Below are positions 47,725-63,310 of a stretch of DNA of 64,000 nucleotides, piece after piece (positions within the stretch are counted from its first letter, which is position 1; each line of letters starts with the position of its first letter). This stretch comes from an uncultured delta proteobacterium (GTDB lineage: Bacteria > Myxococcota_A > Polyangia > Polyangiales > Polyangiaceae), in contig CAWAIF010000003.1 in NCBI GenBank assembly GCA_963782055.1, positions 6,848,001-6,912,000 of the forward strand, given 5' to 3'. Under the pieces are notes generated by a model that was given only the letters and a program-made list of their open reading frames with translations, did no database searches and was not told the DNA's origin. The position numbers were made by a program, and so were the translations under genes.

Positions 47725-47813
47725 GGCTTGGTCACCGCGCTCATGGTAACGCCTCACCGCCCGATGCGCCGCGCCGGGTTTGCATGGCGGGAAGGAGTGC
47801 AGCGCGTGTGCCC
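47725..47813 (-). pseudogene. Remnant of the Uma2 unit: promoter/leader plus first 7 codons (MSAVTKP)
   Basis: Nearly identical to the leader of the five full copies; ATG at 47744. Confidence 0.85.
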
Positions 47814-47862
47814 GAAGCAGGACATGCTTGCGCCGCTCCCGACTCCGCAGTGTGATCAGGGG

Positions 47863-48680
47863 GTGAGCCACGATCTGATGCTCTGGCGGCCGCGTGCGGG
47901 AGCGCGGAGTGACCGGGCCATGGTCTACCTCGTGCTCGCGGGAGGCGCGCCGTGCGATGCCATCGAGCCGCTCGACTGCGCGGTCGTCGAGGAGGATCTC
48001 GACCGGCACTGTCCCGGGTGGCGCAGTGGCGAACGCGGAATGACCGTCGATCTCTGCGCGACGCACCTCGACGTCAGCCTCGCTGCCGGCGAGCGCGGCG
48101 GCGCGGCCCTCACCGCGATCCAGGCGCTGGCCGCCCGGCTTGGGCTCGAGCTCTTCGATCCCGGCGCGGCTCCGATCTCCCCGGCGGAGGACCGTGAGGC
48201 GGCGAGGACTCTCCGCGCGCACGATGCCGAGGCGACTCAGGAGCGCGTGCGCGTGTGGCAGCGCGAGGCCGAGAGCGGCGACGCCGCCGCGATGAACGAG
48301 CTCGGAAACGCCTACTCGATGGGCGAGGGCGTGCCGGAGGACGCCGCGCTCGCGGCGCAATGGTACGCGCGCGCTCGCCGCGCGCTGGCTCGAGCAGGCG
48401 GGCGCGCACGCAGGGCTACACCGAAGGGCTCGTGCGCCTCGCCGAGCTGTATCGGTCCGGCGACCGGATGCCGCGCGATCCCGCCCGCGCCCGGGCCATG
48501 CTGGAGCGTGCTCTCCCGCGAGACGGGCTGGTCGCCGCGTTCATGCTCGCGGAGATGATGGAAGCGGGTGAAGGCGGCGCCGCCGACGTCGAGCGGGCCA
48601 GGCAGCTCTATCGGGGCGCCCTCGAGCACCGCCACCCGGAGGCACGCCTCCGGCTCCGGCGGCTCGGGGAGGATGTGTGA
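47863..48680 (+). pseudogene. SEL1-like repeat protein, frameshifted near 48372-48411
   Basis: AMNELG..Y..GEGVPED...A.QWY in one frame, LAARWLEQA in a second, GY.EG..RLAELY..G in a third. Confidence 0.7.
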
Positions 48681-48788
48681 GACCGGTAGCTCCCTGGGTG
48701 CGATGGACCAATCCCTGAACTCGGCGGGCAGGGCGAGGAGCATCAAGACCCGAGCCTCGGCATACGCATCACCGACGGGCCCGCCGCG

Positions 48789-49493
48789 TCACCTGCCGCC
48801 GCCGCGCTCCGCGAGCAGGGCGCGCAGCCGCGCAACCTCCTCCAGCGCTGCCTCCTTCGCGGCGCGCTCCGCTTCCTTCGCCGCGCGCTCCGCCTCCTCC
48901 GGCGTGGGGGCGAGCACGCCGTCGCGCGCGAGGCGCAGCGCAGCCGGCTCGCCTCTACCCGGTGCGATCACCCACGCGGCGCCCAGCGCGAGGCACGGCG
49001 TCGTGCCGCCGGAAACCGCGCGCTCGACCAGGTCGCCCTCGATGCGGTCCCACGCGCGGATGCGGAGCTCGTCCGCGTCGAAGCACACCACCTCCTGCGT
49101 GCCCAGCGCGCGGTAGCGCTCCAGCTTCTGCTCGAGGGGGATGGCCTCCCGCGTGTCGCTCGGGCTGAGGATCTCCACGCACAGCTCCGGCGTGCCGCGT
49201 TCCCACGTCTTCCACGATGGGAAGCTGTCTTGCGGCGTGCCCAGCTTGACGAAGCCGTCCGGCGCGAGGCACCGGCGAGGATCGCTCGCGTCGAAGTAGA
49301 CGAACTGATCGGCCCCCACCGTGTCCGCCTGCGTGACGGCCGCGAGCAGGATGGCGTGGAGGAGCTCGCACAGATAGAGGTGCCGCAGCGACTGACCCAA
49401 GGCCCACTCCTCCCTCGTGGACGGGAAGTCCACCGGCTGCACCGGACGGAGGTGGCGGAGGGAGGAGGCCTGCGGCTTGGTCACCGCGCTCAT
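48789..49493 (-). CDS. Uma2 family (DUF820, PD-(D/E)XK) endonuclease, copy 1
   Basis: APDGFV...PELCVEILSPSD...KLERY..LG plus EAERAAK coiled-coil tail. Confidence 0.9.
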   Translation of the reverse strand: MSAVTKPQASSLRHLRPVQPVDFPSTREEWALGQSLRHLYLCELLHAILLAAVTQADTVGADQFVYFDASDPRRCLAPDGFVKLGTPQDSFPSWKTWERGTPELCVEILSPSDTREAIPLEQKLERYRALGTQEVVCFDADELRIRAWDRIEGDLVERAVSGGTTPCLALGAAWVIAPGRGEPAALRLARDGVLAPTPEEAERAAKEAERAAKEAALEEVARLRALLAERGGGR

Positions 49494-49546
49494 GGTAACG
49501 CCTCGCCGCCCGATGCGCCGCGCCGGGTTTGCATGGCGGGAAGGAG

Positions 49547-49640
49547 TGCAGCGCGTGTGCCAGCGAGGGAGCGCAGGAATTCGCGGGGTTCGTGGCGGCG
49601 CGCGGGTGTCCGGGGACACCCGCGGGGGACAGGGCGGACA
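49547..49640 (-). promoter_or_regulatory. Sigma-54 promoter plus upstream palindrome, Uma2 copy 1
   Basis: TGGCACACGCGCTGCA (49562-49547); CGCGGGTGTCC-GG-GGACACCCGCG (49601-49624); extra GGACA repeats. Confidence 0.7.
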
Positions 49641-49708
49641 GACGAGGACGCGCAGCCCGGCGACCAGACCGCGCGGTGCCGAAGCTCGAGTGCGGTCGCC
49701 GCCAGCGC

Positions 49709-50179
49709 TCACGGCACGGGCACGATGACGTCGAGCCCGTCGCCGCTCGGGTCCACCTCGCAAATGCCGCTGTGGTGATTGTCCATGCAGTCGCACGACA
49801 GGTCCTGAAGGCACTCGGGCGGCAGGTCGTAGCAGGAGGTCACCCCTGCGTCGGGCGACGGGCAGAGGGCCACTCCCCCGTCGGCGTCGAGGGGCATGGG
49901 CGGCGGCGCGCCCCCCGCGTGCTGGTAGACCACGCAGTAGTGATCCGCGCCTTCGCAGAGACAGTCACCGCAGAGGAAGGGGGCCCCCGCGTCGATGCGG
50001 CGCGGCGCCGGGGGCGAGGCGGCGTCGACCCTGGGCACGAAGTCGGGTCCGCCGTCCACGTCGGTGGGGGCGTCCGCCGTCGCGTCGCGCGTGACGTCGT
50101 CGTGCGCCGGCGCCGTGCCGCAGCCCGCCGCTACCATGCTGATCGCCGGGATGATCCAGGTGCGGAGCGCGCGGGTCAT
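49709..50179 (-). CDS. Small Cys-rich lipoprotein (cargo)
   Basis: Signal ...ISMVAAGC; Cys-rich C-terminus. Confidence 0.7.
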   Translation of the reverse strand: MTRALRTWIIPAISMVAAGCGTAPAHDDVTRDATADAPTDVDGGPDFVPRVDAASPPAPRRIDAGAPFLCGDCLCEGADHYCVVYQHAGGAPPPMPLDADGGVALCPSPDAGVTSCYDLPPECLQDLSCDCMDNHHSGICEVDPSGDGLDVIVPVP

Positions 50180-50199
50180 GGGCTCGAGGATAGCGCACT

Positions 50200-50378
50200 C
50201 GGGGGGGGCGCGGGGGGGCGCGGTGATGGCGACCGCGACGGTGCCGGACGTCAACAGCCCGATGCCCGTCCCGAGCATCGCCGGGCTGCGCACACCGTGA
50301 TCCTCCGCGCTCCGCGGAGGCCGCACCCGGGAGAAGGAGTCCGCCGGCGATGAGGCAGGCAACAAGCAGTCCGCGCAT
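50200..50378 (-). pseudogene. Fragment of a secreted/membrane protein gene
   Basis: MRGLLVACL...ASAE, then a 7-bp duplication (CGCGGAG x2) shifts frame into DHGVRSPAMLGTGIGLL; truncated. Confidence 0.45.
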
Positions 50379-50575
50379 TCGTCAACACTAGCAAGTACGG
50401 CGGCTGCTCGCCGGCCTCGCCCCGGTGCCGTGCGCGCGGCGCCGCGGATGGCTGCGAGGCCTCACGGGGCCGTCGGCGCGTGCGGTACCATCGATGCCGG
50501 GGGATCAGACCGACCCGAGGACGGCGCGGTGTGGAGCCGAGCCTCGGCATACGCATCACCGACGGGCCCGTCGCG

Positions 50576-51280
50576 TCACCTGCCGCCGCCGCGCTCCGTG
50601 AGCAGGGCGCGCAGCCGCGCAACCTCCTCCAGCGCTGCCTCCTTCGCCGCGCGCTCCGCTTCCTTCGCGGCGCGCTCCGCCTCTTCCGGCGTGGGGACGA
50701 GCACGCCGTCGCGCGCGAGGCGCAAGGCAGCCGGCTCGCCTCTACCCGGTGCGATCACCCACGCGGCGCCCAGCGCGAGGCACGGCGTCGTGCCGCCCGT
50801 GACCTCGCGCTCGACCAGATCGCCCTCGATGCGATCCCACGCGCGGATGAGGAGCTCGTCCGCGTCGAAGCACACCACCTCCTGCGCGCCGAGGGCGCGG
50901 TAGCGCTCCAGCTTCTGCTCGAGGGGGATCGCCTCCCGCGTGTCGCTCGGGCTGAGGATCTCCACGCACAGCTCCGGCGTGCCGCGCTCCCACGTCTTCC
51001 ACGAGCCGAAGCGATCCCGCGGATGGCCGAGCTTCACGAATCCGTCCGGCGCGAGGCAGCGCCGGGGATCGCTCGCGTCGAAGTAGATGAATGCGTCGGA
51101 CCCCACCGTGTCATCCGGCGTGACGGCAGCCGCGAGGATGGCGTAGAGCAGGACGCAGAGGTCCAGGTGGCGTGACGATTGACCCAAAGCCCACTCCTCC
51201 CTCGTGGACGGGAAGTCCACCGGCTGCACCGGGCGGAGGTGGCGGATGGAGGAGGCCTGCGGCTTGGTCACCGCGCTCAT
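50576..51280 (-). CDS. Uma2 family endonuclease, copy 2 (most divergent)
   Basis: Same motifs as copy 1; 234 aa. Confidence 0.9.
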   Translation of the reverse strand: MSAVTKPQASSIRHLRPVQPVDFPSTREEWALGQSSRHLDLCVLLYAILAAAVTPDDTVGSDAFIYFDASDPRRCLAPDGFVKLGHPRDRFGSWKTWERGTPELCVEILSPSDTREAIPLEQKLERYRALGAQEVVCFDADELLIRAWDRIEGDLVEREVTGGTTPCLALGAAWVIAPGRGEPAALRLARDGVLVPTPEEAERAAKEAERAAKEAALEEVARLRALLTERGGGR

Positions 51281-51333
51281 GGTAACGCCTCGCCGCCCGA
51301 TGCGCCGCGCCGGGTTTGCATGGCGGGGAGGAG

Positions 51334-51430
51334 TGCAGCGCGCGTGCCGGCGCGAGCGTGCGGGGTTTCTCGGGCTGCGAGGAGGTGGCGGGGTGTCCGG
51401 GGACACCCGAGATGGACAGGGGGGACACCC
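51334..51430 (-). promoter_or_regulatory. Sigma-54 promoter plus palindrome, Uma2 copy 2
   Basis: CGGCACGCGCGCTGCA (51349-51334); TGTCC-GG-GGACA at 51394-51405. Confidence 0.68.
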
Positions 51431-51444: not shown

Positions 51445-52497
51445 CTACCGATTGTAGGCCGGCTTCTCCAGCGGCAGCGGCTGCGGGTTGCGCAGCACCC
51501 AGGCGACCGCGAGCGCAGCCAGGCGATCGTTCCCGGCGCCCCCCCGCGCGTGCAGTGAACGCACGATCGACGCGATCTCGGCGATCTCCGACGGCCCGAG
51601 GGGCGTCCCGCGTTGCACGTAGCTCGCCAGGGCGGCCGCCATCTCGGTGTACGGGTCATCCCAGTTCGCCCCGCCGTTGCGCTCCCACTCGTCGGAGATG
51701 CGGCCCGTGATGCGGATGACCTCGCCCTGGACGGTGGCGGCAGGGCCGCGCGACGGCACCAGCAGATCCCACAGCTCCGCGTGCTGCTCCTGCCAGGTCG
51801 TCGTCTTCACGACGATGGGCGCGGCGCCCTCGTGCACGTGCCGGCGAGCCACCGGCGTGACCTCGAAGGTCGTGTAGAGGAAGTCGAGCGCGTCGCTGGC
51901 CGCCGCCACGCCCTCGCGGTTGAACCCCTCGCGATGAAACTCGAACGACTTGCCCGCCTGCGCGACGAAGCCCTTCATCGCCGGGGTGCGCTCGGCGCCG
52001 GCGTCCAGCATGACCTTCACGAAGGCCGGCATGCGATCGAGCTCGGCGTTGGTGCAGCCGCGCAGCGCGAGCTCGAGCGGGGTGAGCCCTTGCTTGTTGC
52101 GCGCATCGACCCGCGCGCCGTGCGCGAGCAAGAGCGCGGCGTTCTCGGTGTGCTTGCGGTCCGCCGCGGCGTGGAGCGGCGTGCCGATGGAGGCGGTGGC
52201 GGCGTTCACGTCGGCGCCGAGCTCCAGGAGCACCGGGATGTTGCCCCGCCAGCTCCGCGCCCGGGTGTGCAGCGGGGTGTTGCCCCAGGTGTCGACGGCG
52301 CCGAGGTCGGCTCCCCGCGCCACCAGCCATCGCGCGAGGGCGTCGGGACACCCGTCGAAGGCGAGGGCGGTCTGCTTCGCGTAGTCTCCGCGGGCATCGA
52401 CCTCGCAGGTCTCGAAGACCGCCTGGAGCGCGGCGAGATCCCCCGCCTCCAGCAGCTCGGCGAAGTTCTTCGGCAGGGTCTTGCGCTTGCTCGGCAC
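51445..52497 (-). CDS. Ankyrin repeat protein (cargo)
   Basis: GNTPLH...LLELGADVN, GTPLHAAA...LLLAHGA and GLTPLELA. Confidence 0.88.
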   Translation of the reverse strand: MPSKRKTLPKNFAELLEAGDLAALQAVFETCEVDARGDYAKQTALAFDGCPDALARWLVARGADLGAVDTWGNTPLHTRARSWRGNIPVLLELGADVNAATASIGTPLHAAADRKHTENAALLLAHGARVDARNKQGLTPLELALRGCTNAELDRMPAFVKVMLDAGAERTPAMKGFVAQAGKSFEFHREGFNREGVAAASDALDFLYTTFEVTPVARRHVHEGAAPIVVKTTTWQEQHAELWDLLVPSRGPAATVQGEVIRITGRISDEWERNGGANWDDPYTEMAAALASYVQRGTPLGPSEIAEIASIVRSLHARGGAGNDRLAALAVAWVLRNPQPLPLEKPAYNR

Positions 52498-52640: not shown

Positions 52641-53345
52641 TCACGTGCCCCCGCCGCGCTCCGCGAGCAGGGCGCGCAGCCGCGCGAGCTCCTCGAGGGC
52701 CTTCGCCTCCCGCGCGAGCGCTGCTTCCTTCTCCGCGCGCTCTGCCTCCTCCGGCGTGGGGACGAGCACGCCGTCGCGCGCGAGGCGCAGCGCAGCCGGC
52801 TCGCCTCTACCCGGTGCGATCACCCACGCGGCGCCCAGCGCGAGGCACGGCGTGGTGCCGCCCGTGATCTCGCGCTCGACCAGATCGCCCTCGATGCGGT
52901 CCCACGCGCGGATGCGGAGCTCGTCCGCGTCGAAGCACACCACCTCCTGCACGCCGAGGGCGCGGTAGCGCTCCAGCTTCTGCTCGAGGGGGATCGCCTC
53001 CCGCGTGTCGCTCGGACTGAGGATCTCCACGCACAGCTCCGGCGTGCCGCGCTCCCACGTCTTCCACGATGGGAAGCTGTCTTGCGGCGTGCCCAGCTTG
53101 ACGAAGCCGTCCGGCGCGAGGCACCGGCGAGGATCGCTCGCGTCGAAGTAGACGAACTGATCGGCCCCGACCGTGTCCGCCGGCGTGACGGCGGCGCGAA
53201 GGATGGCGTGCAGGAGCTCGCAGAGATCCAGATGGCGCAGCGACTGACCCAAGGCCCACTCCTCCCTCGTGGACGGGAAGTCCACCGGCTGCACCGGACG
53301 GAGGTGGCGGAGGGAGGAGGCCTGCGGCTTGGTCACCGCGCTCAT
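52641..53345 (-). CDS. Uma2 family endonuclease, copy 3
   Basis: Same motifs; 234 aa. Confidence 0.9.
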   Translation of the reverse strand: MSAVTKPQASSLRHLRPVQPVDFPSTREEWALGQSLRHLDLCELLHAILRAAVTPADTVGADQFVYFDASDPRRCLAPDGFVKLGTPQDSFPSWKTWERGTPELCVEILSPSDTREAIPLEQKLERYRALGVQEVVCFDADELRIRAWDRIEGDLVEREITGGTTPCLALGAAWVIAPGRGEPAALRLARDGVLVPTPEEAERAEKEAALAREAKALEELARLRALLAERGGGT

Positions 53346-53398
53346 GGTAACGCCTCGCCGCCCGATGCGCCGCGCCGGGTTTGCATGACGAGGAGGAG

Positions 53399-53490
53399 TG
53401 CAGCGCGTGTGCCAGCGAGCCGGTGCGGGATTTCGCGGCTGCGCGCGCGCGCGGGGTGTCCGGGGACACCCGCGGGGGACAGGGGGGACA
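53399..53490 (-). promoter_or_regulatory. Sigma-54 promoter plus palindrome, Uma2 copy 3 (intergenic region shared with the divergent WYL gene)
   Basis: TGGCACACGCGCTGCA (53414-53399); TGTCC-GG-GGACA at 53457-53468. Confidence 0.7.
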
Positions 53491-53580
53491 GCCCGCGAGG
53501 AGCGGGGCTGTCCGCGTCGAGGTAGGCGGCGCGCTCCGCGGGCGCTGTCCGCTGCTCCCCACGCAGACTAGGATGCAGCC

Positions 53581-54510
53581 GTGGGACAGCGCAGCAACAC
53601 CGAGACCATCGTCGCGCTCCTCAAGGCGTTCCTGGATCAGCGCACATGGAAGCAGGCGGACCTGGCGCGCCACGTCGGCGTCCAGCCCGCCACCGTCCAC
53701 AAGCGCCTGGAGGAGCTGCGCGCCTGCGGCGTCCCCCTCGAGAGCGAGCGGGAGCACCCCCACGTCTTCTGGAGCGTGCCGCGGAGCTGGTACCCCGGCG
53801 GCGTGCTCTTCACCGGCGAGCAGGTGACGCAGATGTTCCGGCAGCTCTCCCGCCTGCCGAAGAGCAAGGCGCGCAACGCGCTCATCGAGACGGTGCTCCG
53901 GTACCTGCCCACGCGCCAGCCGGCGATCGCCATCGTCCCCGCGGAGACCACCGCGCGCGAGGAGCAGCACCTGCCCGTCATCGAGGACGCGGCGAACCAG
54001 AAGGTCGCCCTCCAGTTCCGCTACTTCACCGCCAACCGCGGCAGCGAGGGCAGGCGCCACGCGTCGGTGCACCGGGTGGTGCTCGGACCGCCCGCGCGCT
54101 TCGTCGCCACCTGCCACCGCACCGGCGGCCTCAAGTGGTTTCGCGTGGAGAACGTGTCCGACGCGAAGCTCGACGCCCGCGAGCCCTTCCGCGACGCCGA
54201 CGCGAAGACGGTGGACGCCCACCTGCGCGCCAGCCTGGACGGCTTCCACGAGGGCCGTCCCCCCGAGGCGCACGTCTTCTTCGTGAGCGATCCGGACGCG
54301 CGCTGGGTCGCCCGCAACCTCCTCGAGGAGATGCGCGCGGAGGAGGTCCCTGGCGGGATCCGCGTGACGCTGGAGACCTCCGCGCTCACCCGCCTCGCGC
54401 GGTTCGTGGTGGGCCTCGGCGCCGCGGCCAGACCGCTCACCCCCGCGCTGCGGGCGGAGGTGTCGGCGCTCGCGAAGGGTGCGCTGGAGTCGATCGCGCA
54501 GTCGAAGTAG
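53581..54510 (+). CDS. HTH + WYL domain transcriptional regulator
   Basis: N-terminal HTH (QADLARHVGV..ATV.K.L..L...G); WYL core F.Y......R.......C..TGGLKWFRVENV. Confidence 0.82.
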   Translation: MGQRSNTETIVALLKAFLDQRTWKQADLARHVGVQPATVHKRLEELRACGVPLESEREHPHVFWSVPRSWYPGGVLFTGEQVTQMFRQLSRLPKSKARNALIETVLRYLPTRQPAIAIVPAETTAREEQHLPVIEDAANQKVALQFRYFTANRGSEGRRHASVHRVVLGPPARFVATCHRTGGLKWFRVENVSDAKLDAREPFRDADAKTVDAHLRASLDGFHEGRPPEAHVFFVSDPDARWVARNLLEEMRAEEVPGGIRVTLETSALTRLARFVVGLGAAARPLTPALRAEVSALAKGALESIAQSK

Positions 54511-54612
54511 GCCCTCCCGGCCGGGAGTGAACAAGCGGCCAGTCGTGGCTATCTGGTGCGCCCTTTCGGCGAAGGGGCAGTCGCACGGTGAGAGGTACCC
54601 GAGGAGGCCTCC

Positions 54613-54876
54613 ATGAGCGACTTCGATCCCACCGCCGCGCTGCTGCAGTTTCCGGATACGCCGCGCGTCCGGCGCGCGCGCACCCTCGACATCGCGGGCA
54701 GGGCGATCCCGCTCCTGCAGGCGGCGCTGGATGCGGGCAACGCGACGCTGCTCCGCGAGCTCTTCGCGGTGCTCGGGGACGTGGCCGCCGGCGAGGACGC
54801 GCTCGCCCGGTTCGTGGCTATCTCCGTCGCGGACGCGCAGGTCGTGGCGATCGCCGGAGAGGCGGCGGGATCATGA
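54613..54876 (+). CDS. Small hypothetical protein
   Basis: GAGGAGG SD; ATGA overlap with the next gene. Confidence 0.6.
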   Translation: MSDFDPTAALLQFPDTPRVRRARTLDIAGRAIPLLQAALDAGNATLLRELFAVLGDVAAGEDALARFVAISVADAQVVAIAGEAAGS

Positions 54877-56267
54877 GCCGCGGCGCTCACCTGTCCAAGT
54901 CGCGGTACACCGCCGGTCTCCAGTGCCACCGCGCGCTGTGGTGGAGGGTCCACGACCCGGAGGCGCCGGAGCTCGTCAGCGGCCCGGAGCTGCAGGCGAT
55001 CTTCGACCGGGGCGCGCGCGTGGGCGAGCTCGCCCGGGAGTACCTCCCCGGCGGAGAGCTCATCCACTCTCCCTGCGAGGAGGTCGAGAGGAGCATCGAG
55101 GCGACGCGCGCAGCGATCGCCGCGGGCGCCAGGATCATCTACGAGGCCTCCTTCCGCGCCGACGACGTGTTCGTCGCGGTCGACATCCTGCACCGGCCTC
55201 CGCGCAGCCGCGGCTGGACCCTCTCGGAGGTGAAGTCGACGACGAAGGTGAAGCCGCACCACATCCCCGGCGCCGCGGTGCAGACGCACGTGCTCCGCCG
55301 CGCGGGGCTCCCCGTCACGCGGACCGAGGTGATGCACCTCGAGCGCGAGTGCCGCCACCCGGCCCTCTACAACCTCTTCACCCGCACCGACGTGAGCGAG
55401 GAGGTCGAGGAGTACCTGCCCGCCGTCCCGCGGGAGGTGAGGGCGCAGCTCCGGATGCTCGGGCGCGCGTCGCCGCCGGAGGTCCGGCCCGGCGCGCACT
55501 GCACCGCGCCGTACGTGTGTCCCTTCCTCGCGCGCTGCTGGGGGGAGGAGGAGGAGGTCGTACAAAAGGAGGCGGTCATCGTCGACGAGCGTCTGCGCGA
55601 CGTGCTCGCGGGGCTCGAGGGCCCGATCGCCCACCTCGACTTCGAGACCGTCAATCCGGCCGTGCCCGTCTGGCCAGGTTGCCGTCCGTACGATCCGGTT
55701 CCGGTGCAGTTCAGCGTCCACTTCGAGCCGGTGGGAGAGGGCGCTCCGAGGCACTTCGAGTGGCTCGCCAGCGGAGCGGGTGATCCTCGCACTGCGCTCG
55801 CGCGCGCCCTCGTCCGCGCCCTGCGGGGCGCGCGCACGGTCATCGTGTATCACCAGCCCTTCGAGCAGGGGCGGCTGCGCGATCTCCAGGAGGCGGTGCC
55901 GGACCTCGCCGGCGAGCTCGAGGACATCATCGCGCGCCTGGTGGACCTGCTGCCCATCGTGCGCAGGCACGTGGTGCACCCGGGGTTCGGGGGGCGCTAC
56001 AGCCTGAAGAAGGTGGCGCCCGCGCTGGTGCCCGGGCTGCGCTACGAGGAGATGGAGATCGGGGACGGCGCGGCGGCGAGCCGGGCGCTGGAGACTCTGC
56101 TGCTCGGGCCGGAGGTGAGCGCGGGGGAGCGGCGGAGGACGCGGGAGGCGCTGCTGGCGTACTGCGGGCAGGACACGCTGGCGACGATGGGGGTGCTCTC
56201 GTGGCTGCGAAGGGCGGTGGGATCGCGCGGGATGCGGACGGCGCGACGCGCAGGGCGCGGGGCCTGA
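54873..56267 (+). CDS. DUF2779-domain protein: Cas4-like PD-(D/E)XK nuclease fused to an RNase H-like domain
   Basis: LSKS.Y..GLQC, DIL...EVKS, HC..PY.CPF...C (4 Cys), LDFET, YSLKKV.PAL and YC.QDT. Confidence 0.82.
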   Translation: MSRGAHLSKSRYTAGLQCHRALWWRVHDPEAPELVSGPELQAIFDRGARVGELAREYLPGGELIHSPCEEVERSIEATRAAIAAGARIIYEASFRADDVFVAVDILHRPPRSRGWTLSEVKSTTKVKPHHIPGAAVQTHVLRRAGLPVTRTEVMHLERECRHPALYNLFTRTDVSEEVEEYLPAVPREVRAQLRMLGRASPPEVRPGAHCTAPYVCPFLARCWGEEEEVVQKEAVIVDERLRDVLAGLEGPIAHLDFETVNPAVPVWPGCRPYDPVPVQFSVHFEPVGEGAPRHFEWLASGAGDPRTALARALVRALRGARTVIVYHQPFEQGRLRDLQEAVPDLAGELEDIIARLVDLLPIVRRHVVHPGFGGRYSLKKVAPALVPGLRYEEMEIGDGAAASRALETLLLGPEVSAGERRRTREALLAYCGQDTLATMGVLSWLRRAVGSRGMRTARRAGRGA

Positions 56268-56360
56268 CGCGCGTGCCCCGCGTTGCCGCCGTCACGGGCC
56301 GAGGTACCGCGTACGTTCGCGCTTGCGGAACATCTGACCGGACGTATAGGTTCTTCCAGA

Positions 56361-57155
56361 ATGGTGCCAGGCGCCAGCGACGACGAGATCGTGTCGTTCA
56401 GCCGCCCGCCCGTGGTCGAGGTGGTGTACGGCGCGCAGTTTCACGCGCTCCCGCTGCAGACCGTCCACTACGGCAGGTTCTGGGACCGCATCCGCCAGAC
56501 GTATCAAAAGACGCTGGACGTGCCGCCGCTGCCCTCCATCCTGGAGACACCGGCCGGTCAATCCGCCGTCGGTATCTTCACCGTCTCGCCGCTACCCGAC
56601 CTCCGCCGCGTGTTCTTCGTCGACGAGGAGCACGGCCGGATGCTCCAGCTCCAGCCCAACCGTTTCCACCACAACTGGCGACGTCGAACGGACGTGGAGC
56701 CCTATCCTCGATTCCGTGAACTTCGCCCCCAGTTCGTCGACAGGTGGCGGGAGTTCCTCACGTTCCTCGAGGACGAAGGTCTACCTCCCCCTCATGTCAC
56801 TCAGGGGGAGATGACGTACATCAACCAGATGCCCTTCGGTGAGCTCTGGGACGACGCCGGGCTCGCCAGGCTATTCCCGTGGCTGACGCCCAGGAACCCT
56901 GCGCTACCGGCTGCGCCGGGCGTCGAGGTCGCGCTCCACTTCGAGGCACCGGAGCTGCACGGCAGAGTCCACATCACCATCGGTATGGCGACTCCGCCGA
57001 AGGACGGGCAGCGCGTGGTCCAGATGGAGCTCACCGCGCGCGGCGCGCCCGACAATCTGGAGCAGTGGCTCGTGGCAGCACGGAGCGCGATTGTTCGCAG
57101 CTTCGTCGAGCTCACGGGGGCGGACGCCCACGCACACTGGGGGAGGGTCACTTGA
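56361..57155 (+). CDS. TIGR04255 family protein
   Basis: F..PPVVEVV...QF, LQLQ.NRF..NWR, YP.F, YIN and F..LT...AH..W pattern. Confidence 0.78.
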   Translation: MVPGASDDEIVSFSRPPVVEVVYGAQFHALPLQTVHYGRFWDRIRQTYQKTLDVPPLPSILETPAGQSAVGIFTVSPLPDLRRVFFVDEEHGRMLQLQPNRFHHNWRRRTDVEPYPRFRELRPQFVDRWREFLTFLEDEGLPPPHVTQGEMTYINQMPFGELWDDAGLARLFPWLTPRNPALPAAPGVEVALHFEAPELHGRVHITIGMATPPKDGQRVVQMELTARGAPDNLEQWLVAARSAIVRSFVELTGADAHAHWGRVT

Positions 57156-57673
57156 GCGCCGCGAAGATGTTCGCGTACGGTGGCAGCGGGACATCGTCCA
57201 GCGTCCTGGAGTCCGGCACGGGTGCACCTACCCGTCCCCGGGGTTCGCTCGGGACGACGGTGGACCTTTCTGGGACGGCGAGGCAGGTCGAACGGGCGAG
57301 CGAGATCCTGGCGGCCGAGGAGAGCGCGCTCGGCCGGATCAAGGAGCTCGTCGGACAGACCGCCTCACGTGACTGGGACGGCGAGGGAGGGGAGCCGATC
57401 GAGCCGCGCCAGTGGGACGACGCGAGGGCGCTCGTGTCCCGTGCAGTCCGTGAGCTCCTCGGGCTCCCCCCGCCGTTCGTCAGCGCGTGCGGAGACGGCA
57501 CTGTGCACCTCCAGTGGACGACCCCGCACGGCGACCGTGGCATCATCGAGATCGGACGCGACGCGTACTGGTGGGACTACCTTCCGGCTCCGGATCGCGG
57601 AGAGCAGGACGAGGTGCTCGCACTCTCGAGCCCGGACCCGGCCTTCGAGAAGGTCCGCGCGCTCTTCGGTTGA
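57152..57673 (+). CDS. Hypothetical protein (WDG-motif partner of the TIGR04255 gene)
   Basis: TTGA overlap with upstream stop; DWDGEGGEPI...P.V....DG.V.L.W; start may be ATG 57167. Confidence 0.65.
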   Translation: MSAAKMFAYGGSGTSSSVLESGTGAPTRPRGSLGTTVDLSGTARQVERASEILAAEESALGRIKELVGQTASRDWDGEGGEPIEPRQWDDARALVSRAVRELLGLPPPFVSACGDGTVHLQWTTPHGDRGIIEIGRDAYWWDYLPAPDRGEQDEVLALSSPDPAFEKVRALFG

Positions 57674-57675
57674 CG

Positions 57676-58098
57676 ATGCCCGGAGACCGGCCGGACGTCA
57701 CCGAGCTCGAGGTCGCTCCGGACGACTCCATCCTGTTCCGGTTCGTGCAGCCGACTCACATCGACGCCAAGGCGCCGCCCGGCGCCCGGCTACAGACCGC
57801 CGCGCTTCCCACGAACGAGTTCACGCCCAACGAGCACGGCTACGGAGCGTCCGTGTACGTGAAGTCGCTGCTCGCCAACGGGCTTCGCGATCTCCACGAA
57901 GCGTGCCCCAAGTGGTGCGACTGGCGCGTCGCAGAAGTCCCGGTGCGGGAAATGCTCGAACTCGGCGTGGGGGTCCGCCTCTCGCCGCAAGACTGTCCGT
58001 TCGAGGCCATCCGCCACGCACACGCGTCCCTCATTGGCGTGACGAGGCAGAAGCGGAACCTCCTCATCCGCATCATCGAGCGGCGCCTGCTCCCCTGA
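57676..58098 (+). CDS. Hypothetical protein, possible ADP-ribosyltransferase/RES-like toxin fold
   Basis: Starts 2 nt after upstream stop; LFR...ASVY...HA.L pattern (fold is an inference). Confidence 0.55.
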   Translation: MPGDRPDVTELEVAPDDSILFRFVQPTHIDAKAPPGARLQTAALPTNEFTPNEHGYGASVYVKSLLANGLRDLHEACPKWCDWRVAEVPVREMLELGVGVRLSPQDCPFEAIRHAHASLIGVTRQKRNLLIRIIERRLLP

Positions 58099-58266: not shown

Positions 58267-58271
58267 GAGCC

Positions 58272-59909
58272 CTACCGGTTCTTCTTGCGCGCCTTGCGCG
58301 CCGCCTTGCGCTTGTCCTTCTTCGCGCGCGCCGCCTTCGGCGCGGCCGACGGCGCCCGCCCGAGCGGAGGCGTCCCGATCGAGAGCGGCCTCTCCTGCAG
58401 GTCTCGCATCCAGGCCTCGATGCCCTCCTTCGTCTCGACGTCGAAGCCCGCGGCGCGCCCCGCCTGCACCACCGACTTCGCCGTTCCGAAGTTGCGCGGG
58501 TCGGAGAGCGCGGCCTCGAGCTTCTCCACCGCGTCGCCGCCGAGCACGCGCAGGCACGCGTCCGCCTGCGGCAGCCCGAACTCGCGCTTCAGGAAGGCGT
58601 AAAACGCCCGGTTCGTCTCGATGATCGCGCGCGCCTCGGCGGCGGCGATGGTCACCTTGGCCGGGAGGATCTCGAAGAGGAGCTCCCGCAGCTCCGCCGC
58701 CTGGAGGGTCGCGACGCTGGCGCCCATGAAGCTCGCCGCGAGATCGATCACGTAGTGGCAGTCGTCGACGTGCGTCAGCGCCGCGCCCTCGGGGGACTCC
58801 GCGAAGCGGCGCACCAGCTCCTCCTCCAGCTCGGTCTCCTCGTCCGGGTCCACGTCTTCTCCGGCGCTCGCGAGCTCGGTCAGGCGGCCGAGCACGTCGT
58901 AGGGTGGCCGGTAGCGCCCGGTGTCGTCGTACGGCGCGCCCACCGTGACCTCCACCTCCCCGGCGTGCGTCTGGACCCGGAGCGTGCGCCGGAAGCCGGC
59001 GCCCGCGCGCCACGCGTCGCGCACCGCGCGGCGGTCCGCCAGCGCCTCCGGCAGCGCCAGCGCGATCGCCTCGGCGAGGGTCAGCTCCTTCGCCTTCGGC
59101 GGCCGCCCGACCATGTCCTCGTCGACCACGACGACCCAGGGATAGGCGTCGGCGCCGGCGACCTCCCAGCCGTGCTCGGCGATCTCCTTGCGCAGCGCGT
59201 CCGGCAGCTCGGCGCCTCGCTGGAAGTTGATGGCGAAGTGCGCCGGCAGCTCCGGCTCCTCGCCGGCCTCCACGTCCGCGGCCGCCTCGAGGAACCTCTC
59301 GAGGTCATCGAGCCCGGAGAAGAGCAGGACCGCGCGGCTCTCGCCGAGCTGGCCGATCACGATCATCGCCGCGTCGCGCAGGCCCAGGCTCTCGATCGTC
59401 ACCGAGAGCACGCTCTCGTCGTCGGGCACGGCCTCCCAGGGCCGCGCGCGGAAGAGGCCGGCGGCGGCGCGAAAGAAGGACGCCACCGCCGCGGGGCCGA
59501 TGTCCGGCGCCAGGTACGACGGCTCCGCCCCCGTCCCGTGCTCGCCCATGTGCTCGCGCATCGAGCCGAGCATGCCGTCGACCTCCGGTGTCGGGGCGCA
59601 GACGAGCTCCACCGCGGGGGGCAGCGCCTCCCGCAGGGCGCGCGCGAGCTCCGGCGAGGCCACGCGGACGCGCGCGGGGGTGTGGGGACGTCCGACCGCC
59701 GGGTGAAGCGTCGTGCGGTGGAAGCTCGCGGCGGCGCCGGCGAGGATCTCGCCCGGCTTCGCGGTGTCGAAGCCCAGCACCGGACCGTCGGGGAGCATCC
59801 ACACCAGCAGCTCGGGCCGGTAGGGCTCGCCCTCGCCGGTGACGTACGCCGGCATCCGTCCCACCCCGCACACCCACTCGGTGCCCTTCGATCGTGCGCT
59901 CTTCTTCAT
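58272..59909 (-). CDS. Hypothetical protein with basic C-terminal tail (cargo)
   Basis: 545 aa; clean codon usage; GGAG SD; KKDKRKAARKARKKNR tail. Confidence 0.78.
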   Translation of the reverse strand: MKKSARSKGTEWVCGVGRMPAYVTGEGEPYRPELLVWMLPDGPVLGFDTAKPGEILAGAAASFHRTTLHPAVGRPHTPARVRVASPELARALREALPPAVELVCAPTPEVDGMLGSMREHMGEHGTGAEPSYLAPDIGPAAVASFFRAAAGLFRARPWEAVPDDESVLSVTIESLGLRDAAMIVIGQLGESRAVLLFSGLDDLERFLEAAADVEAGEEPELPAHFAINFQRGAELPDALRKEIAEHGWEVAGADAYPWVVVVDEDMVGRPPKAKELTLAEAIALALPEALADRRAVRDAWRAGAGFRRTLRVQTHAGEVEVTVGAPYDDTGRYRPPYDVLGRLTELASAGEDVDPDEETELEEELVRRFAESPEGAALTHVDDCHYVIDLAASFMGASVATLQAAELRELLFEILPAKVTIAAAEARAIIETNRAFYAFLKREFGLPQADACLRVLGGDAVEKLEAALSDPRNFGTAKSVVQAGRAAGFDVETKEGIEAWMRDLQERPLSIGTPPLGRAPSAAPKAARAKKDKRKAARKARKKNR

Positions 59910-59999: not shown

Positions 60000-60707
60000 C
60001 TAGCGTTCGCCGTCGCCGTGCTTCGCCAGAAGCGCGCGCAGCCGGGCCACCTCCTCGAGCGCCTTCTCCTTCTCGGCGCGTTCCGCCTCCTTCGCGGCGC
60101 GCTCCGCCTCCTCCGGCGTGGGGACGAGCACGCCATCCCGCGCGAGGCGCAGCGCAGCCGGCTCGCCTCTACCCGGAGCGATCACCCACGCGGCGCCCAG
60201 CGCGAGGCACGGCGTGGTGCCGCCGGAGACTTCGCGCTCGACCAGATCGCCCTCGATGCGATCCCACGCGCGGATGCGGAGCTCGTCCGCGTCGAAGCAC
60301 ACCACCTCCCTCGTGCCGAGGGCGCGGTAGCGCTCCAGCTTCTGCTCGAGGGGGATCGCCTCGCGCGTGTCGCTCGGACTGAGGATCTCCACGCACAGCT
60401 CCGGCGTGCCACGCTCCCACGTCTTCCACGATGGGAAGCTGTCCTGCGAAGCGCCACGCTTGACGAAGCCGTCGGGCGCGAGGCAGCGGCGAGGATCGCT
60501 CGCGTCGAAGTAGACGAACTGATCGGACCCGACCGTGTCCGCCTGCGTGACGGCGGCGCGAAGGATGGCGTGAAGGAGCTCACAGAGATCCAGATGGCGC
60601 AGCGACTGACCCAAGGCCCACTCCTCCCTCGTGGACGGGAAGTCCACCGGCCGGACCGGGCGGAGGTGGCGGATGGAGGAGGTCTGCGGCTTGGTCACCG
60701 CGCTCAT
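60000..60707 (-). CDS. Uma2 family endonuclease, copy 4
   Basis: Same motifs; 235 aa. Confidence 0.9.
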   Translation of the reverse strand: MSAVTKPQTSSIRHLRPVRPVDFPSTREEWALGQSLRHLDLCELLHAILRAAVTQADTVGSDQFVYFDASDPRRCLAPDGFVKRGASQDSFPSWKTWERGTPELCVEILSPSDTREAIPLEQKLERYRALGTREVVCFDADELRIRAWDRIEGDLVEREVSGGTTPCLALGAAWVIAPGRGEPAALRLARDGVLVPTPEEAERAAKEAERAEKEKALEEVARLRALLAKHGDGER

Positions 60708-60760
60708 GGTAACGCCTCACCGCCGGGTGCGCCGCGCCGGGTTTGCATGGCGGGGAGCAG

Positions 60761-60846
60761 AGCAGCGCGCGTGCCGGCGAGAGCGTGCGCTATTTCTCGG
60801 GCGAGGACACGCGCGCGGGCTGTCCGCGGACACCCCCGAGGGACAG
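60761..60846 (-). promoter_or_regulatory. Sigma-54 promoter plus palindrome, Uma2 copy 4
   Basis: CGGCACGCGCGCTGCT (60776-60761); TGTCC-GC-GGACA at 60821-60832. Confidence 0.66.
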
Positions 60847-60893
60847 GGCGACGACCTGGCGACAGGCCACGCCGACGCCGACAATCCGAGGTG

Positions 60894-61493
60894 TCACGGA
60901 TCGCACTCCGTCAGCGTCGGACCGCCGTAGAGGCTCGGGTACGAGCGACACCGGGGGCCCTGGTAGACGACGTCGTCCGCGTCGCCGAGCATCGCCGCCG
61001 CCGTCTGCCGCGCGGCCGCCACGTCGGCGCGATGTTCGGCGGCGCGCCGGTCCTCGATCGCAATCTCGGTGCGGGCAGCGTGATCGAGCACGGCGGCATC
61101 ATGCGAGTCGAGCAGCGCCAGCTCGTAGACCCTCGGGGCCTCGCAGCGCCGAGGGTTCGCGTCGCACGCGAGCCTGACGGCGCTCCAGTCCGCGGCGAAG
61201 TAGCGCCTCGTCAACCACGCGTCGAGCGCGCGGGCGTACAGCCTCTCGCAGCGATCGCGGTCGATGCCCGCGCACTTCTTCTCCCGGAACATGGTGCGGA
61301 AGCGCGCGGTCGACGCGTATTCGAGGAGCAGGCCGCAACCCGGCCGGAGGCCGCCATCACGACACGTCGGGGAGATGACCCGATGCGCGGCGTCGGAGCG
61401 CACGCCGGCGATCTCCGTGTCGGCGCGATCGTCGATGGCCGCGGCGTTGCAGCCCGCGCAGGCCAGCGGTACCAGCAGGAGCCCCCATCGCAT
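60894..61493 (-). CDS. Hypothetical lipoprotein (cargo)
   Basis: Signal MRWGLLLVPLACAGC. Confidence 0.7.
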   Translation of the reverse strand: MRWGLLLVPLACAGCNAAAIDDRADTEIAGVRSDAAHRVISPTCRDGGLRPGCGLLLEYASTARFRTMFREKKCAGIDRDRCERLYARALDAWLTRRYFAADWSAVRLACDANPRRCEAPRVYELALLDSHDAAVLDHAARTEIAIEDRRAAEHRADVAAARQTAAAMLGDADDVVYQGPRCRSYPSLYGGPTLTECDP

Positions 61494-61555: not shown

Positions 61556-62302
61556 CTACGTTCCCCCGCCGCGCTCCGCGAGCAGGGCGCGCAGCCGGGC
61601 CACCTCCTCGAGCGCCTTCTCCTTCTCGGCGCGCTCCGCCTCCTTCGCGGCGCGCTCCGCCTCCTTCGCGGCGCGCTCCGCCTCCTTCGCCGCGCGCTCC
61701 GCCTCCTCCGGCGTGGGGACGAGCACGCCATCCCGCGCGAGGCGCAGCGCAGCCGGCTCGCCTCTACCCGGAGCGATCACCCACGCGGCGCCCAGCGCGA
61801 GGCACGGCGTGGTGCCGCCCGAGACTTCGCGCTCCACCAGATCGCCCTCGATGCGGTCCCACGCGCGGATGCGGAGCTCGTCCGCGTCGAAGCACACCAC
61901 CTCCCGCGCGCCGAGGGCGCGGTAGCGCTCCAGCTTCTCCTCGAGGGGGATCGCCTCGCGCGTGTCGCTCGGACTGAGGATCTCCACGCACAGCTCCGGC
62001 GTGCCACGCTCCCACGTCTTCCACGATGGAAAGGTGTCCTGCGGCGTGCCCCGCTTCACGAACCCGTCCGGCGCGAGGCACCGGCGCGGATCGCCCGCGT
62101 CGAAGTAGACGAACTGATCGGACCCGACCGTGTCCGCCTGCGTGACGGCGGCGCGAAGGATGGCGTGAAGGAGCTCACAGAGATCCAGATGGCGCAGCGA
62201 CTGACCCAAGGCCCACTCCTCCCTCGTGGACGGGAAGTCCACCGGCCGGACCGGGCGGAGGTGGCGGATGGAGGAGGCCTGAGGCTTGGTCACCGCGCTC
62301 AT
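61556..62302 (-). CDS. Uma2 family endonuclease, copy 5 (two extra EAERAAK heptads)
   Basis: Same motifs; 248 aa. Confidence 0.9.
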   Translation of the reverse strand: MSAVTKPQASSIRHLRPVRPVDFPSTREEWALGQSLRHLDLCELLHAILRAAVTQADTVGSDQFVYFDAGDPRRCLAPDGFVKRGTPQDTFPSWKTWERGTPELCVEILSPSDTREAIPLEEKLERYRALGAREVVCFDADELRIRAWDRIEGDLVEREVSGGTTPCLALGAAWVIAPGRGEPAALRLARDGVLVPTPEEAERAAKEAERAAKEAERAAKEAERAEKEKALEEVARLRALLAERGGGT

Positions 62303-62355
62303 GGTAACGCCTCGCCGCCGGATGCGCCGCGCCGGGTTTGCATGGCGGGGAGCAG

Positions 62356-62450
62356 AGCAGCGCGCGTGCCAGCGAGGGCGCGCGGGAATTCTCGGGTGCG
62401 CGCGCGGCGCGGGGTGTCCGGGGACAGGCAAGCCGGACAGTCAGGACACC
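62356..62450 (-). promoter_or_regulatory. Sigma-54 promoter plus palindrome, Uma2 copy 5
   Basis: TGGCACGCGCGCTGCT (62371-62356); TGTCC-GG-GGACA at 62415-62426; extra GGACA repeats. Confidence 0.7.
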
Positions 62451-62577
62451 TCGAAGGCTCCGAGGACGTCACCGAGCGCGTGCGCGCCCGGTGAGCATGC
62501 CGGTCAGTCCGGCCGGGCGCCATGTGGCGTGTTGGCGAGACGAAGTGCCGCTGGACCGGCAGACCGCCGACGCTGTC

Positions 62578-62865
62578 TCACCGGACGTTCTGCTCGACCC
62601 GCCACTCGTCCCACAGGGCGAGCGCCGCACCGAGGAGCGCGCCGTACTCTGCGGAGGAGGGCCCGCCGGCGGCTTCCTGAAGGGGCCCGCGGGCCGCGTC
62701 GACCACGTCGAGCAGCCGCCTCTGGTCCTGCGCGTCCGCGTTGAAGATCTGGAGCGTGCGCTCGCGGCCATCGTAGTCGCCGACGAGCCGCTCCGAGGGA
62801 ATCCATCGCACGGGGCGACCGCCGACGAGCCGAGAGACCACGAAAGGGATCTGCTCGCGGTTCAT
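62578..62865 (-). CDS. Small hypothetical protein coupled to the HEPN gene (possibly damaged at its 3' end)
   Basis: ATGA overlap with the HEPN stop. Confidence 0.5.
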   Translation of the reverse strand: MNREQIPFVVSRLVGGRPVRWIPSERLVGDYDGRERTLQIFNADAQDQRRLLDVVDAARGPLQEAAGGPSSAEYGALLGAALALWDEWRVEQNVR

Positions 62866-63203
62866 CCGAGGAGTCCTCCCACCAGCTTTTCTGCCAGCGA
62901 AGCCGCCCTGTCGGCCTCCTCGGGCTCCACGGGTTCGTCGTGGTAGTCAGCCTTCAACCGCATCCCGTAGAGCTCCTTCAAGTCCTTGCGACCTTCTTCA
63001 TCAAGGATACCGATTCTCGCCGCGTCGTCCGGCAGCAGATCGTGTCGGTAGTACTGCTTGTCGGAGGTGAACTCGAGGTGGCGAGCCTGCGCGACGTGCG
63101 CGACCGCGTGGTAGGCCGCGTAGTACGCGCGGTTGGCGGCGGCGTTGGCGAGACAGGGTCGGACGCCGTCGTCGTCCGGGAGCAGCCGACCGCGGCGCGT
63201 CAA
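62862..63203 (-). CDS. HEPN domain protein, N-terminus probably truncated
   Basis: AANRAYYAAYHA, H and R-LKAD-Y motifs; first helix appears missing. Confidence 0.75.
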   Translation of the reverse strand: MTRRGRLLPDDDGVRPCLANAAANRAYYAAYHAVAHVAQARHLEFTSDKQYYRHDLLPDDAARIGILDEEGRKDLKELYGMRLKADYHDEPVEPEEADRAASLAEKLVGGLLG

Positions 63204-63212
63204 TCATCGCAG

Positions 63213-63310
63213 AGCAGAATGCATGCCGGGCGCGGGGACCGTGATTTCCCGCGCGAGGACGACGCCCGAGGTGTCCGGGGACAGCCGCCACCTGTCCCGG
63301 GGACACCCGG
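63213..63310 (-). promoter_or_regulatory. Same sigma-54 promoter plus palindrome architecture upstream of the HEPN gene
   Basis: CGGCATGCATTCTGCT (63228-63213); TGTCC-GG-GGACA at 63272-63283; second TGTCC..GGACA at 63293-63305. Confidence 0.6.

Follow-up and report, generated by a model that had tools for sequence, protein, structure and literature searches.

The closest described counterparts of the locus treated here are the Uma2 (DUF820, COG4636) gene cassettes of cyanobacteria and Thermus. In the passages of the two papers drawn on here, the family is called a “likely solo toxin” and its paralogue cassettes are noted (Makarova et al., 2009; PMC2701414), and an expansion of the family is recorded in Thermus (Omelchenko et al., 2005; PMC1274311). 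At the level of abstracts, no report on the function, regulation or biochemistry of Uma2/DUF820/COG4636 was found in the literature. A further case lies at positions 47725-63310 of a 64,000-nucleotide (nt) stretch of DNA (the window; G000:C3:6848001-6912000) from an uncultured soil myxobacterium of the Polyangiaceae, whose genome (G000; 7.58 Mb, ~72% G+C) stands in three contigs at 97% completeness. Here, five Uma2 genes with a common leader alternate with unrelated genes. An initial annotation, made from the sequence alone, regarded the repeated promoter-plus-nuclease unit as a scaffold that captures, expresses and shuffles cargo genes, like an integron without an integrase. The picture favored below, with a probability of about 0.6, is a different one: the array is probably a Uma2 family that was expanded within this genome, is co-regulated and undergoes gene conversion in a variable accessory region, and its leader would be a sigma-54-type promoter of a recombination/repair-like regulon.

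Copies of the unit were searched for by a direct-repeat search of the window and by blastn of one unit against the whole 7.58-Mb genome, and homologues were searched for in 60 other genomes, where the relatives are Polyangiaceae such as Sorangium, as well as in metagenome contigs. The direct-repeat search and blastn gave five copies of ~840-895 nt, all on the minus strand, at 48747-49640, 50534-51430, 52641-53493, 60009-60848 and 61563-62450 (positions without a contig prefix are those of the window). Each is a unit of ~0.85 kb made of the leader and a Uma2 gene. With the coding sequences (CDS) taken to their stop codons, the units and the stump are as follows.

47725-47812, minus strand: stump of a sixth unit, 88 nt, holding the -24/-12 element, the 5′ untranslated region and the first 7 Uma2 codons.
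48747-49640, minus strand: U1; Uma2 CDS 48789-49493, leader 49494-49640, sigma-54-like element 49547-49562.
50534-51430, minus strand: U2; Uma2 CDS 50576-51280, leader to 51430, sigma-54-like element 51334-51349.
52641-53493, minus strand: U3; Uma2 CDS 52641-53345, leader to 53493, sigma-54-like element 53399-53414.
60000-60848, minus strand: U4; Uma2 CDS 60000-60707, leader to 60848, sigma-54-like element 60761-60776.
61556-62450, minus strand: U5; Uma2 CDS 61556-62302, leader to 62450, sigma-54-like element 62356-62371.

The open reading frames (ORFs) of U1-U5 are all open, encode 234-248 amino acids (aa), share a common ATG start and begin with MSAVTKPQ. Five co-oriented Uma2 genes had been recognized from the outset, and their number, strand and positions are borne out, but “near-identical” is too strong a word for them: the identity is 88-95% in the coding part and 76-86% in the leader. 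The sixth remnant is also real. It matches copy 1 at 87 of 88 nt and the other copies at 93-97%, and it sits between the end of a plus-strand gene for a Cys-rich lipoprotein (at 47713) and a Sel1 pseudogene. In U5, the C-terminal helix is 14 residues longer by two extra EAERAAK heptads (42 nt, window 61610-61655). Outside the locus, blastn of the unit found a single diverged copy, U6 (75.9% over 735 nt, C3:1711834-1712560), and one weak match of 75 nt. Repeats of this length can mislead assemblers, and an array of this kind might arise by mis-joining of contigs at the repeat. For this locus such an artefact is barely conceivable: with coding parts 5-12% apart and flanks unique to each, the copies would neither collapse nor cross-join, and the whole genome is in three contigs at 97% completeness.

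The genome contains 14 Uma2 matches, consisting of the five array copies, U6 and eight genes of other subfamilies; U1-U5 and U6 are all above the Pfam cut-off. Two array copies scanned against the Pfam Uma2 family (PF05685) scored 40.5 and 44.5 bits, with a cut-off of 27. An AlphaFold model of a Uma2 copy has a predicted local distance difference test score (pLDDT) of 88.9, and its top Foldseek matches are the Uma2/DUF820 structures 9y1l, 6okh, 3ot2 and 1wdj (E 4.8e-7 to 1.6e-3). A single-sequence search of solved structures with a Uma2 copy gave no match, and a profile of 46 family members matches 9y1l at E 9.8e-5. Among these 46 sequences, P78 and E107 are invariant and D79, S110 and K123 are conserved in at least 90%. 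The stretch with these five residues aligns to 9y1l, and all five copies keep them; the conserved acidic and lysine residues presumably belong to a PD-(D/E)XK-type site. The Uma2 copies are thus predicted, from the model and the profile, to be nucleases with the restriction-endonuclease-like fold of the solved family members. PADLOC returned a weak PDC-S03 match only (E 0.0036), which was not used as a defence annotation.

The leader carries the evidence for the predicted co-regulation. Its alignment reads TGTCC-N5-TGTCC-N8-GGGTGTCC-CC-GGACACCC, ~20 nt, GAGAAAT, 16 nt, TGGCAC/CGGCAC-N5-CTGC(A/T), ~60 nt and ATG, that is, two TGTCC-N2-GGACA dyads and a sigma-54-type -24/-12 element. The latter is found in all five copies and the stump and is close to the TGGCAC-N5-TTGCW consensus; its -24 GG and -12 GC are invariant, even in U6. 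The genome harbors rpoN (one PF04552 match) and 54 matches to PF00158, the sigma-54 activator domain, and TGGCAC-N5-YTGCW occurs in it 27 times, against ~13 expected in a hand estimate from base composition. When dyads were scanned genome-wide as TGTCC-N2/3-GGACA with at most one mismatch, 61 of 1195 sigma-54-like sites were found to carry one 30-120 nt upstream, while random positions gave 1-6 of 1195 in five controls. The leader is not a recombination site private to the unit, but one case of a promoter module that recurs at 61 sigma-54-like sites in the genome.

The module-bearing genes fall into spacing classes. A dyad at -55/-56 is found for U1-U5, for the HEPN gene pair at the right end of the array, for comM, for an 89-aa ORF followed by a comEA-like HHH gene, for ssb and for two IS91-like genes, and radC has its dyad at -66. 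A second recA (recA2) is located 100 nt downstream of comM and has no module of its own. The identities of comM, ssb, radC and the HHH gene were confirmed by Pfam. The loci of comM-recA2, radC, the 89-aa ORF with the comEA-like HHH gene, and ssb are listed under L124-L128 (G000:C3:985020-987570 for L124 and L128, C3:1251409 for L126, C3:966575-965786 for L127 and C3:1344343 for L125). Before the HEPN pair, two dyads (~63272-63308), GGGAAAT and a sigma-54-like element (63213-63228) are arranged in the same manner, and the pair is predicted from this arrangement to be a sixth transcription unit of the Uma2-unit type. Judged from these upstream regions, the shared promoter is likely to be the switch of a DNA-recombination gene set including comM-recA and radC. 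The two IS91-like genes encode transposases of 573 aa, at C3:4409704 (plus strand) and C3:5267047 (minus strand), and are both preceded by a dyad and a sigma-54-type module.

Furthermore, the module can be followed across species. Among Uma2 homologues in other genomes and in metagenomes, 15 of 89 upstream regions have a sigma-54-like element (-24 to -93), compared with 0 of 89 on the opposite strand, and 17 of 26 genomes have one before comM, which in 11 of them lies 27-29 nt ahead of the ATG. The dyads before comM are of different types: TGTCC..GGACA in G000, G007, G025 and G027, TGGCC..GGCCA in six congeners, and TGGCG..CGCCA in several other genera. The Uma2 dyads are of the same type as the comM dyads of their own genome in all five dyad-bearing genomes (G000, G002, G003, G025 and G027), a comparison made without G031, whose comM upstream region was not recovered. 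For example, the Uma2 homologue and comM of G002 share the words GGCCGGGCCAGATC. The radC dyads also match the type of their own genome in five of five relatives, and MarR-like genes of the congeners (see below) have the TGGCC type in 21 of 23 cases. Because the dyad letters of Uma2 vary in step with those of comM, radC and MarR-like genes, the Uma2 subfamily appears to be placed in one regulon with comM-recA2 and radC; these upstream sequences are good evidence that it is a long-standing member.

A separate spacing class, at -75 to -80, corresponds to a dispersed unit of ~0.7 kb in which the same kind of promoter precedes a MarR-like gene. At the DNA level this unit is found 44 times (75-88% identical, each copy with flanks of its own), the protein gives 60 matches, and ~50 MarR-like genes in G000 are preceded by a dyad/sigma-54-type module. 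In a representative copy (G000:C3:2924235-2924930, L173), three TGTCCCC repeats with a TGTCC-N2-GGACACC dyad are combined with a hairpin, the sigma-54-like element TGGCAT-N5-GTGCT and a gene for a MarR-like protein of ~190 aa. Only 2-7 copies are present in the congeners, and the dyads there are of the TGGCC type. At E 1e-15, the MarR-like family is found in six of six congeners and in none of 24 genomes of other genera. One of the latter, G007 (80% complete), has TGTCC dyads before comM, and the confinement of the family to the genus therefore weakens, without rejecting, the idea that the MarR-like protein alone accounts for the dyads. A second MarR-like subfamily (203 aa) is present in five near-identical copies, at C2:422322 (minus), C2:429873 (plus), C3:5910210, C3:6491239 and C3:6580921, with a double dyad and a sigma-54-like element at -75. 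The pair on C2 is inverted and 7.5 kb apart, as if bounding a mobile segment.

As to the origin of the copies, a tree of 46 family sequences unites U1-U5 in one clade (support 97/95) with U6 as its sister (100/99), and the best Uma2 homologue outside the genome, in the 60 other genomes, is 61% identical. From the clade, its sister and this distance, it follows that the family expanded inside the G000 genome; at the sequence level, the tree shows a single origin of the copies there. For the ten copy pairs, synonymous divergence (dS) is 0.12-0.33 and the ratio of nonsynonymous to synonymous divergence (dN/dS) is 0.13-0.27, so that all copies are kept by purifying selection. Ten different two-copy partitions are represented among the 60 parsimony-informative sites, most often {4,5} with 18 sites, {1,2} with 16 and {1,3} with 7. 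In a four-gamete test, 795 of 1770 pairs of informative sites are incompatible, and compatibility between neighboring sites exceeds that after shuffling (p 0.012). Sites of the different partitions are interspersed along the unit, a pattern of short-tract gene conversion and not of single crossovers. Taken together, the sites indicate that the copies are mosaic, with sequence exchanged among them, probably by gene conversion. In U2, a patch at ~codons 30-93 matches the other copies at no more than 76-78% and is thereby as far from them as U6 is. Variable protein columns number 41; among them are 17 of the 60 positions in residues 36-95 (modeled as a helix with loops), 13 of the 38 in the C-terminal helix and only 8 of the 101 in the core.

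The edges of the unit are sharp. Homology starts within a few nt of the first TGTCC and stops at the Uma2 stop codon, and 19 of 20 pairwise local alignments of the 150-nt flanks beyond either edge are at noise (z -2.0 to 3.3). The sole exception is a stretch of 42 nt past the stop codon that U1 shares with U2 only (z 25). The claim of a discrete promoter-plus-gene module of ~0.9 kb is thereby borne out. Such edges suit an explanation in which the unit copies itself selfishly, in the manner of a free-standing homing nuclease gene: it would have entered five or six intergenic sites nearby and one far away, and the cargo would simply be the resident genes. The flanks are unrelated in spite of the low dS; the units fit tightly into intergenic gaps, the stop codon of the ankyrin gene, for example, being 15 nt before the first dyad of U2; a second promoter-plus-gene unit, of the same promoter type, is dispersed through the genome in 44 DNA copies; IS91-like transposase genes carry the same module; and the Uma2 protein itself is a predicted nuclease, from sequence and model. 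Yet this explanation is unlikely. The 150-nt flanks share nothing, so that no common target site is evident, and no terminal repeats were seen, although no search was aimed at target duplications. All the copies are diverged and under purifying selection, with no near-identical pair besides the 88-nt stump, and a single copy is found outside the locus at the DNA level. The module stays with Uma2 across species and has species-specific dyads there, as expected of a host-regulated gene.

Several observations weigh against the reading of the array as a co-regulated, gene-converting family. At a dS as low as 0.12-0.33, neutral flanks duplicated along with the units would be expected to align still, and in 19 of 20 comparisons they do not. 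This calls for copying of the module by itself, replacement of the flanks, or conversion that lowers the apparent age of the copies, and it is the one feature for which a simple paralogue model does not account unaided. Dyad types were assigned by eye in the upstream regions, and a strict perfect-palindrome script missed most of the sites. Most of the 61 dyad-bearing sites belong to one amplified MarR-like family, leaving only ~eight independent promoter lineages. The Uma2 homologues examined in G004, G011, G018 and G036 (42-47% identical) have no module, nor do the best ssb matches in five of five relatives, so that membership of ssb is not conserved or another paralogue is concerned. Likewise dprA, comEC and recA1 of G000 were checked and have no module, and “competence” is therefore not established for the gene set.

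The genes in and beside the array were called by third-position G+C and by family scans (Pfam, NCBIfam, PADLOC), and are arranged as follows.

46964-47713, plus strand: Cys-rich lipoprotein gene, left of the stump.
47900-48680, plus strand: frameshifted Sel1-repeat gene, with Sel1 repeats in two plus-strand frames, convergent with U1.
49709-50365, minus strand: Cys-rich lipoprotein-like ORF, likely start near 50176 (MTRALRTW...AAGC).
51445-52497, minus strand: ankyrin-repeat protein, by family scan.
53581-54510, plus strand: HTH-WYL-WCX regulator, first gene of a five-gene block (53581-58098).
54588-56267, plus strand: DUF2779/RecB-like protein, in the five-gene block.
56283-57155, plus strand: TIGR04255 protein, in the five-gene block.
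57170-57673 and 57676-58098, plus strand: two small ORFs of the five-gene block, matching no family.
58272-59909, minus strand: 545-aa protein, with weak DUF6930/DUF7309 matches below cut-off.
60894-61493, minus strand: lipoprotein-like ORF (MRWGLLLVPLACAGC...), without Pfam, NCBIfam or PADLOC family.
62578-63310, minus strand: HEPN gene (62862-63203) and an overlapping 95-aa ORF without family (62578-62865).

The genes between the copies are unrelated, as first described, and the Sel1 gene next to copy 1 is indeed a pseudogene. Two descriptions hold in part: of a supposed TIGR04255 triad, one gene matches TIGR04255 and the other two are small ORFs without family, and of the HEPN pair, one member is a HEPN gene and its partner is the 95-aa ORF. 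The ORF at 49709-50365 has no Pfam, NCBIfam or PADLOC family. The WYL regulator, the DUF2779/RecB-like nuclease and the TIGR04255 protein (53581-57155, plus strand) look like a conserved module. Homologues of the first two are found at contig ends of the congener G003, with 52% and 68-69% protein identity and 69-80% DNA identity. A DNA paralogue of the HEPN pair, 75% identical, is located ~23 kb to the right of the array (G000:C3:6934835-6935335). A full match to the sigma-54 consensus, TGGCACCAGCCTTGCT at window 47014-47029 (plus strand), without dyads, lies shortly before the likely start of the Cys-rich lipoprotein gene left of the stump.

The absence of an integrase, noted from the beginning, is confirmed: among 23 genomic matches to PF00589, the tyrosine recombinase family, the nearest (C3:6785060) is ~110 kb from the array. 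The cassette ends have no attC-type inverted repeat, and the units share no sequence outside themselves within the 150-nt flanks; their only common palindromes are the promoter dyads, which recur at the 61 sites in the genome. Rfam gave no match on the region at E up to 0.1, a database that may hold no attC model. The cargo lies on both strands and includes the five-gene plus-strand block, and is thus not a set of promoterless, co-oriented single-gene cassettes. The 545-aa gene has a patchy distribution (9 of 60 other genomes, the best matches, at 58%, being in other families) and was not found in the six congeners; three of its homologue loci were inspected, and neither Uma2 nor other array cargo is present there. 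With cargo on both strands, 545-aa homologues without Uma2 and no shared sequence outside the units, the integron-like capture, expression and shuffling of cargo that had been proposed is not supported.

It is true that copies 2-5 are each followed by a gene on their own strand, as originally pointed out (the neighbor of copy 1 being the convergent Sel1 pseudogene), with gaps of ~400, 143, 90 and 62 nt. No intrinsic terminator was called after the Uma2 stop codons; five sites called in the region lie elsewhere, against 2.8 expected. However, when 65 Uma2 homologues elsewhere with enough downstream sequence were considered, the first ORF was co-oriented in 29, convergent in 31 and lacking in 5. 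Given this 29:31 split, four of five co-oriented genes are no departure, and the suggestion that the copies head mini-operons is not upheld.

What may be kept from the scaffold model must be weighed with these results. In this model, circular or incoming DNA carrying the unit and a neighbor gene would integrate by homologous recombination at a resident unit, whose promoter would then drive the cargo. Direct repeats ~0.85 kb long and 88-95% identical suffice as RecA substrates, and exchange of sequence between the copies is evident from the 795 of 1770 site pairs that fail the four-gamete test; this part of the claim stands. The patch in U2 looks as if it came from a source outside the six copies, and the promoter type is also that of comM and a recA paralogue. 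Behind four of the five copies the next gene is co-oriented, with no intrinsic terminator called after the Uma2 stop codons, and the cargo is distributed patchily, as in horizontal transfer. But all copies stem from one ancestor in the genome and not from several donors, the exchange tracts are short and interleaved, unlike single crossovers, and the cargo lies on both strands, with a five-gene block among it whose expression by the unit is impossible. The orientation bias is no bias in view of the 29:31 split, the homologues of the 545-aa gene, the one cargo gene followed, do not adjoin Uma2 elsewhere, no recombinase gene is present within ~110 kb, and the two-copy Uma2 loci of Sorangium are ordinary segmental duplications of 3-6 kb. 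Capture, expression and shuffling of cargo by the unit is consequently a distinctly unlikely explanation, and the cargo was likely brought between the copies by ordinary insertion and rearrangement.

Alternatively, each Uma2 copy and its variable downstream gene might form a functional pair, such as a nuclease with its partner or immunity protein, and the array would be a set of diversified pairs. The co-oriented genes downstream of copies 2-5, at 62 to ~400 nt, invite this idea, as does the location of the most variable part of Uma2 in a surface helix and loop of the model. Proteins of the ankyrin, Sel1 and lipoprotein kinds frequently figure among immunity or adaptor proteins. Nevertheless, the pairing is highly improbable: the downstream genes are unrelated to one another, the neighbor of copy 1 is a convergent pseudogene, homologues elsewhere have no orientation bias, and the 545-aa gene is found in 9 of 60 other genomes, with no Uma2 at the three homologue loci.

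An instructive case is the congener G004 (L015:8221-14170, G004:C1), in which four genes of the Uma2 subfamily lie within 5.4 kb, three of them back to back and one 2.8 kb away. By analogy, these back-to-back copies plausibly show an earlier state of the array. One of the four genes is frameshifted, the sigma-54 module is absent, and a TAnnnT box is found a few nt before each ATG, as for leaderless mRNA; the end of a PIN-like ORF was seen by eye just upstream. The array in G000 may then have begun as a tandem paralogue cassette, as in the congener and in published accounts of the family, and been split later by insertions, while short-tract gene conversion would have kept promoter and gene alike as the flanks diverged. 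The transcription of the Uma2 copies would depend on sigma-54 and on a factor binding the TGTCC-N2-GGACA dyads, either an enhancer-binding protein or the amplified MarR-like protein. DNA damage or DNA uptake may be the signal for the regulon, with the Uma2 proteins possibly acting on DNA as nucleases under those conditions. The helix-and-loop region of residues 36-95 and the C-terminal helix, which varies in heptad steps, may be where the copies diverged in function.

A more far-reaching possibility would combine these elements: in polyangial myxobacteria, a sigma-54 regulon induced by damage or uptake turns on RecA2, ComM, RadC and the Uma2 battery, the nucleases cut DNA, the 0.85-kb units serve as recombination substrates, and the gain, loss and shuffling of genes at the island are thereby regulated and not accidental. 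If so, variable gene arrays would be seeded without an integrase by the Uma2 module, as a promoter-plus-nuclease element of a new kind. This is very unlikely. The picture of a repeat unit with cargo is better explained by a co-regulated, gene-converting paralogue family in a variable island than by a new gene-capture machine.

The congeners match the region in scattered genes only, at 69-80% DNA identity, and synteny of the array is absent from them. An exact 22-nt word of the leader had no match in the metagenome contigs, and scans of genome and metagenome contigs with the Uma2 protein profile gave identities of at most 60%. No tRNA gene is present within the window. At 12-16 kb to the right of the window end (L013:12250-15941), a Lhr/Cas3-like DEAD helicase gene adjoins a gene for a BrxC/BrxD-family ATPase (E 2e-135), and the array thus borders a defence-type gene cluster.

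Uma2/DUF820 is a large family of predicted nucleases that has expanded widely, and here one subfamily has a sigma-54-type promoter module in common with comM-recA2 and radC. The shared module, together with operator letters that change in concert between species, leads to a testable hypothesis that Uma2 nucleases act in a state of recombination, repair or DNA uptake. This points to a regulon in polyangial myxobacteria that was not found described in the literature searched: no report was found on sigma-54 with comM, radC and comEA, and abstracts on myxobacterial transformation and on recA2, sigma-54 and DNA damage in Myxococcus contain nothing on the function or regulation of Uma2. In the part of the DdiA paper available here, sigma-54-dependent regulators change in abundance after mitomycin C, and no sigma-54-dependent comM or radC promoter is mentioned in that part (PMC12288472). 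The interspersed cargo and the regulon link of the Uma2 copies are new here, and no paper was found that states them.

In comparison with the Uma2/DUF820/COG4636 cassettes of cyanobacteria and Thermus, the array has the same family and fold and the same clustering of co-oriented, intact, stand-alone paralogues. However, its copies are not back to back, as one to six unrelated genes lie between them, and they have a sigma-54-type promoter and dyads in common with comM-recA2 and radC. The likeness to an integron consists in a one-way series of repeated elements with unrelated genes in between; the array differs in having no integrase within ~110 kb and no attC-like element, in that the repeat is a whole gene with its promoter, and in that whole operons are found as cargo, on both strands.

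Free-standing homing endonuclease genes, such as seg and mob of T4-like phages, are nuclease genes located in intergenic gaps. The Uma2 units resemble them as sharply bounded nuclease genes with their own promoter between unrelated genes, but no target-site similarity was found in their flanks, they are diverged and under purifying selection, and as promoter they have a module of a host regulon that is retained in other species. Tandem upstream activator dyads are a feature of classical sigma-54 promoters, as in the case of NtrC at glnAp2. The leader shares with this type the GG-N10-GC element, two upstream dyads and an A/T-rich stretch between, and rpoN and many activator genes are present in the genome. 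In contrast to glnAp2, the dyads are close to the promoter, with centers ~50-80 nt upstream of -24, and the members are genes of recombination and repair type and nucleases. Finally, regulons of competence or DNA damage holding comM, comEA, radC, ssb and recA are exemplified by Sxy/CRP-S and ComX. A similar gene set is gathered here under one promoter type, but that promoter is of the sigma-54 type, dprA, comEC and recA1 stand outside it, and the set is enlarged by Uma2 and HEPN nucleases, IS91-like genes and an amplified MarR-like family.

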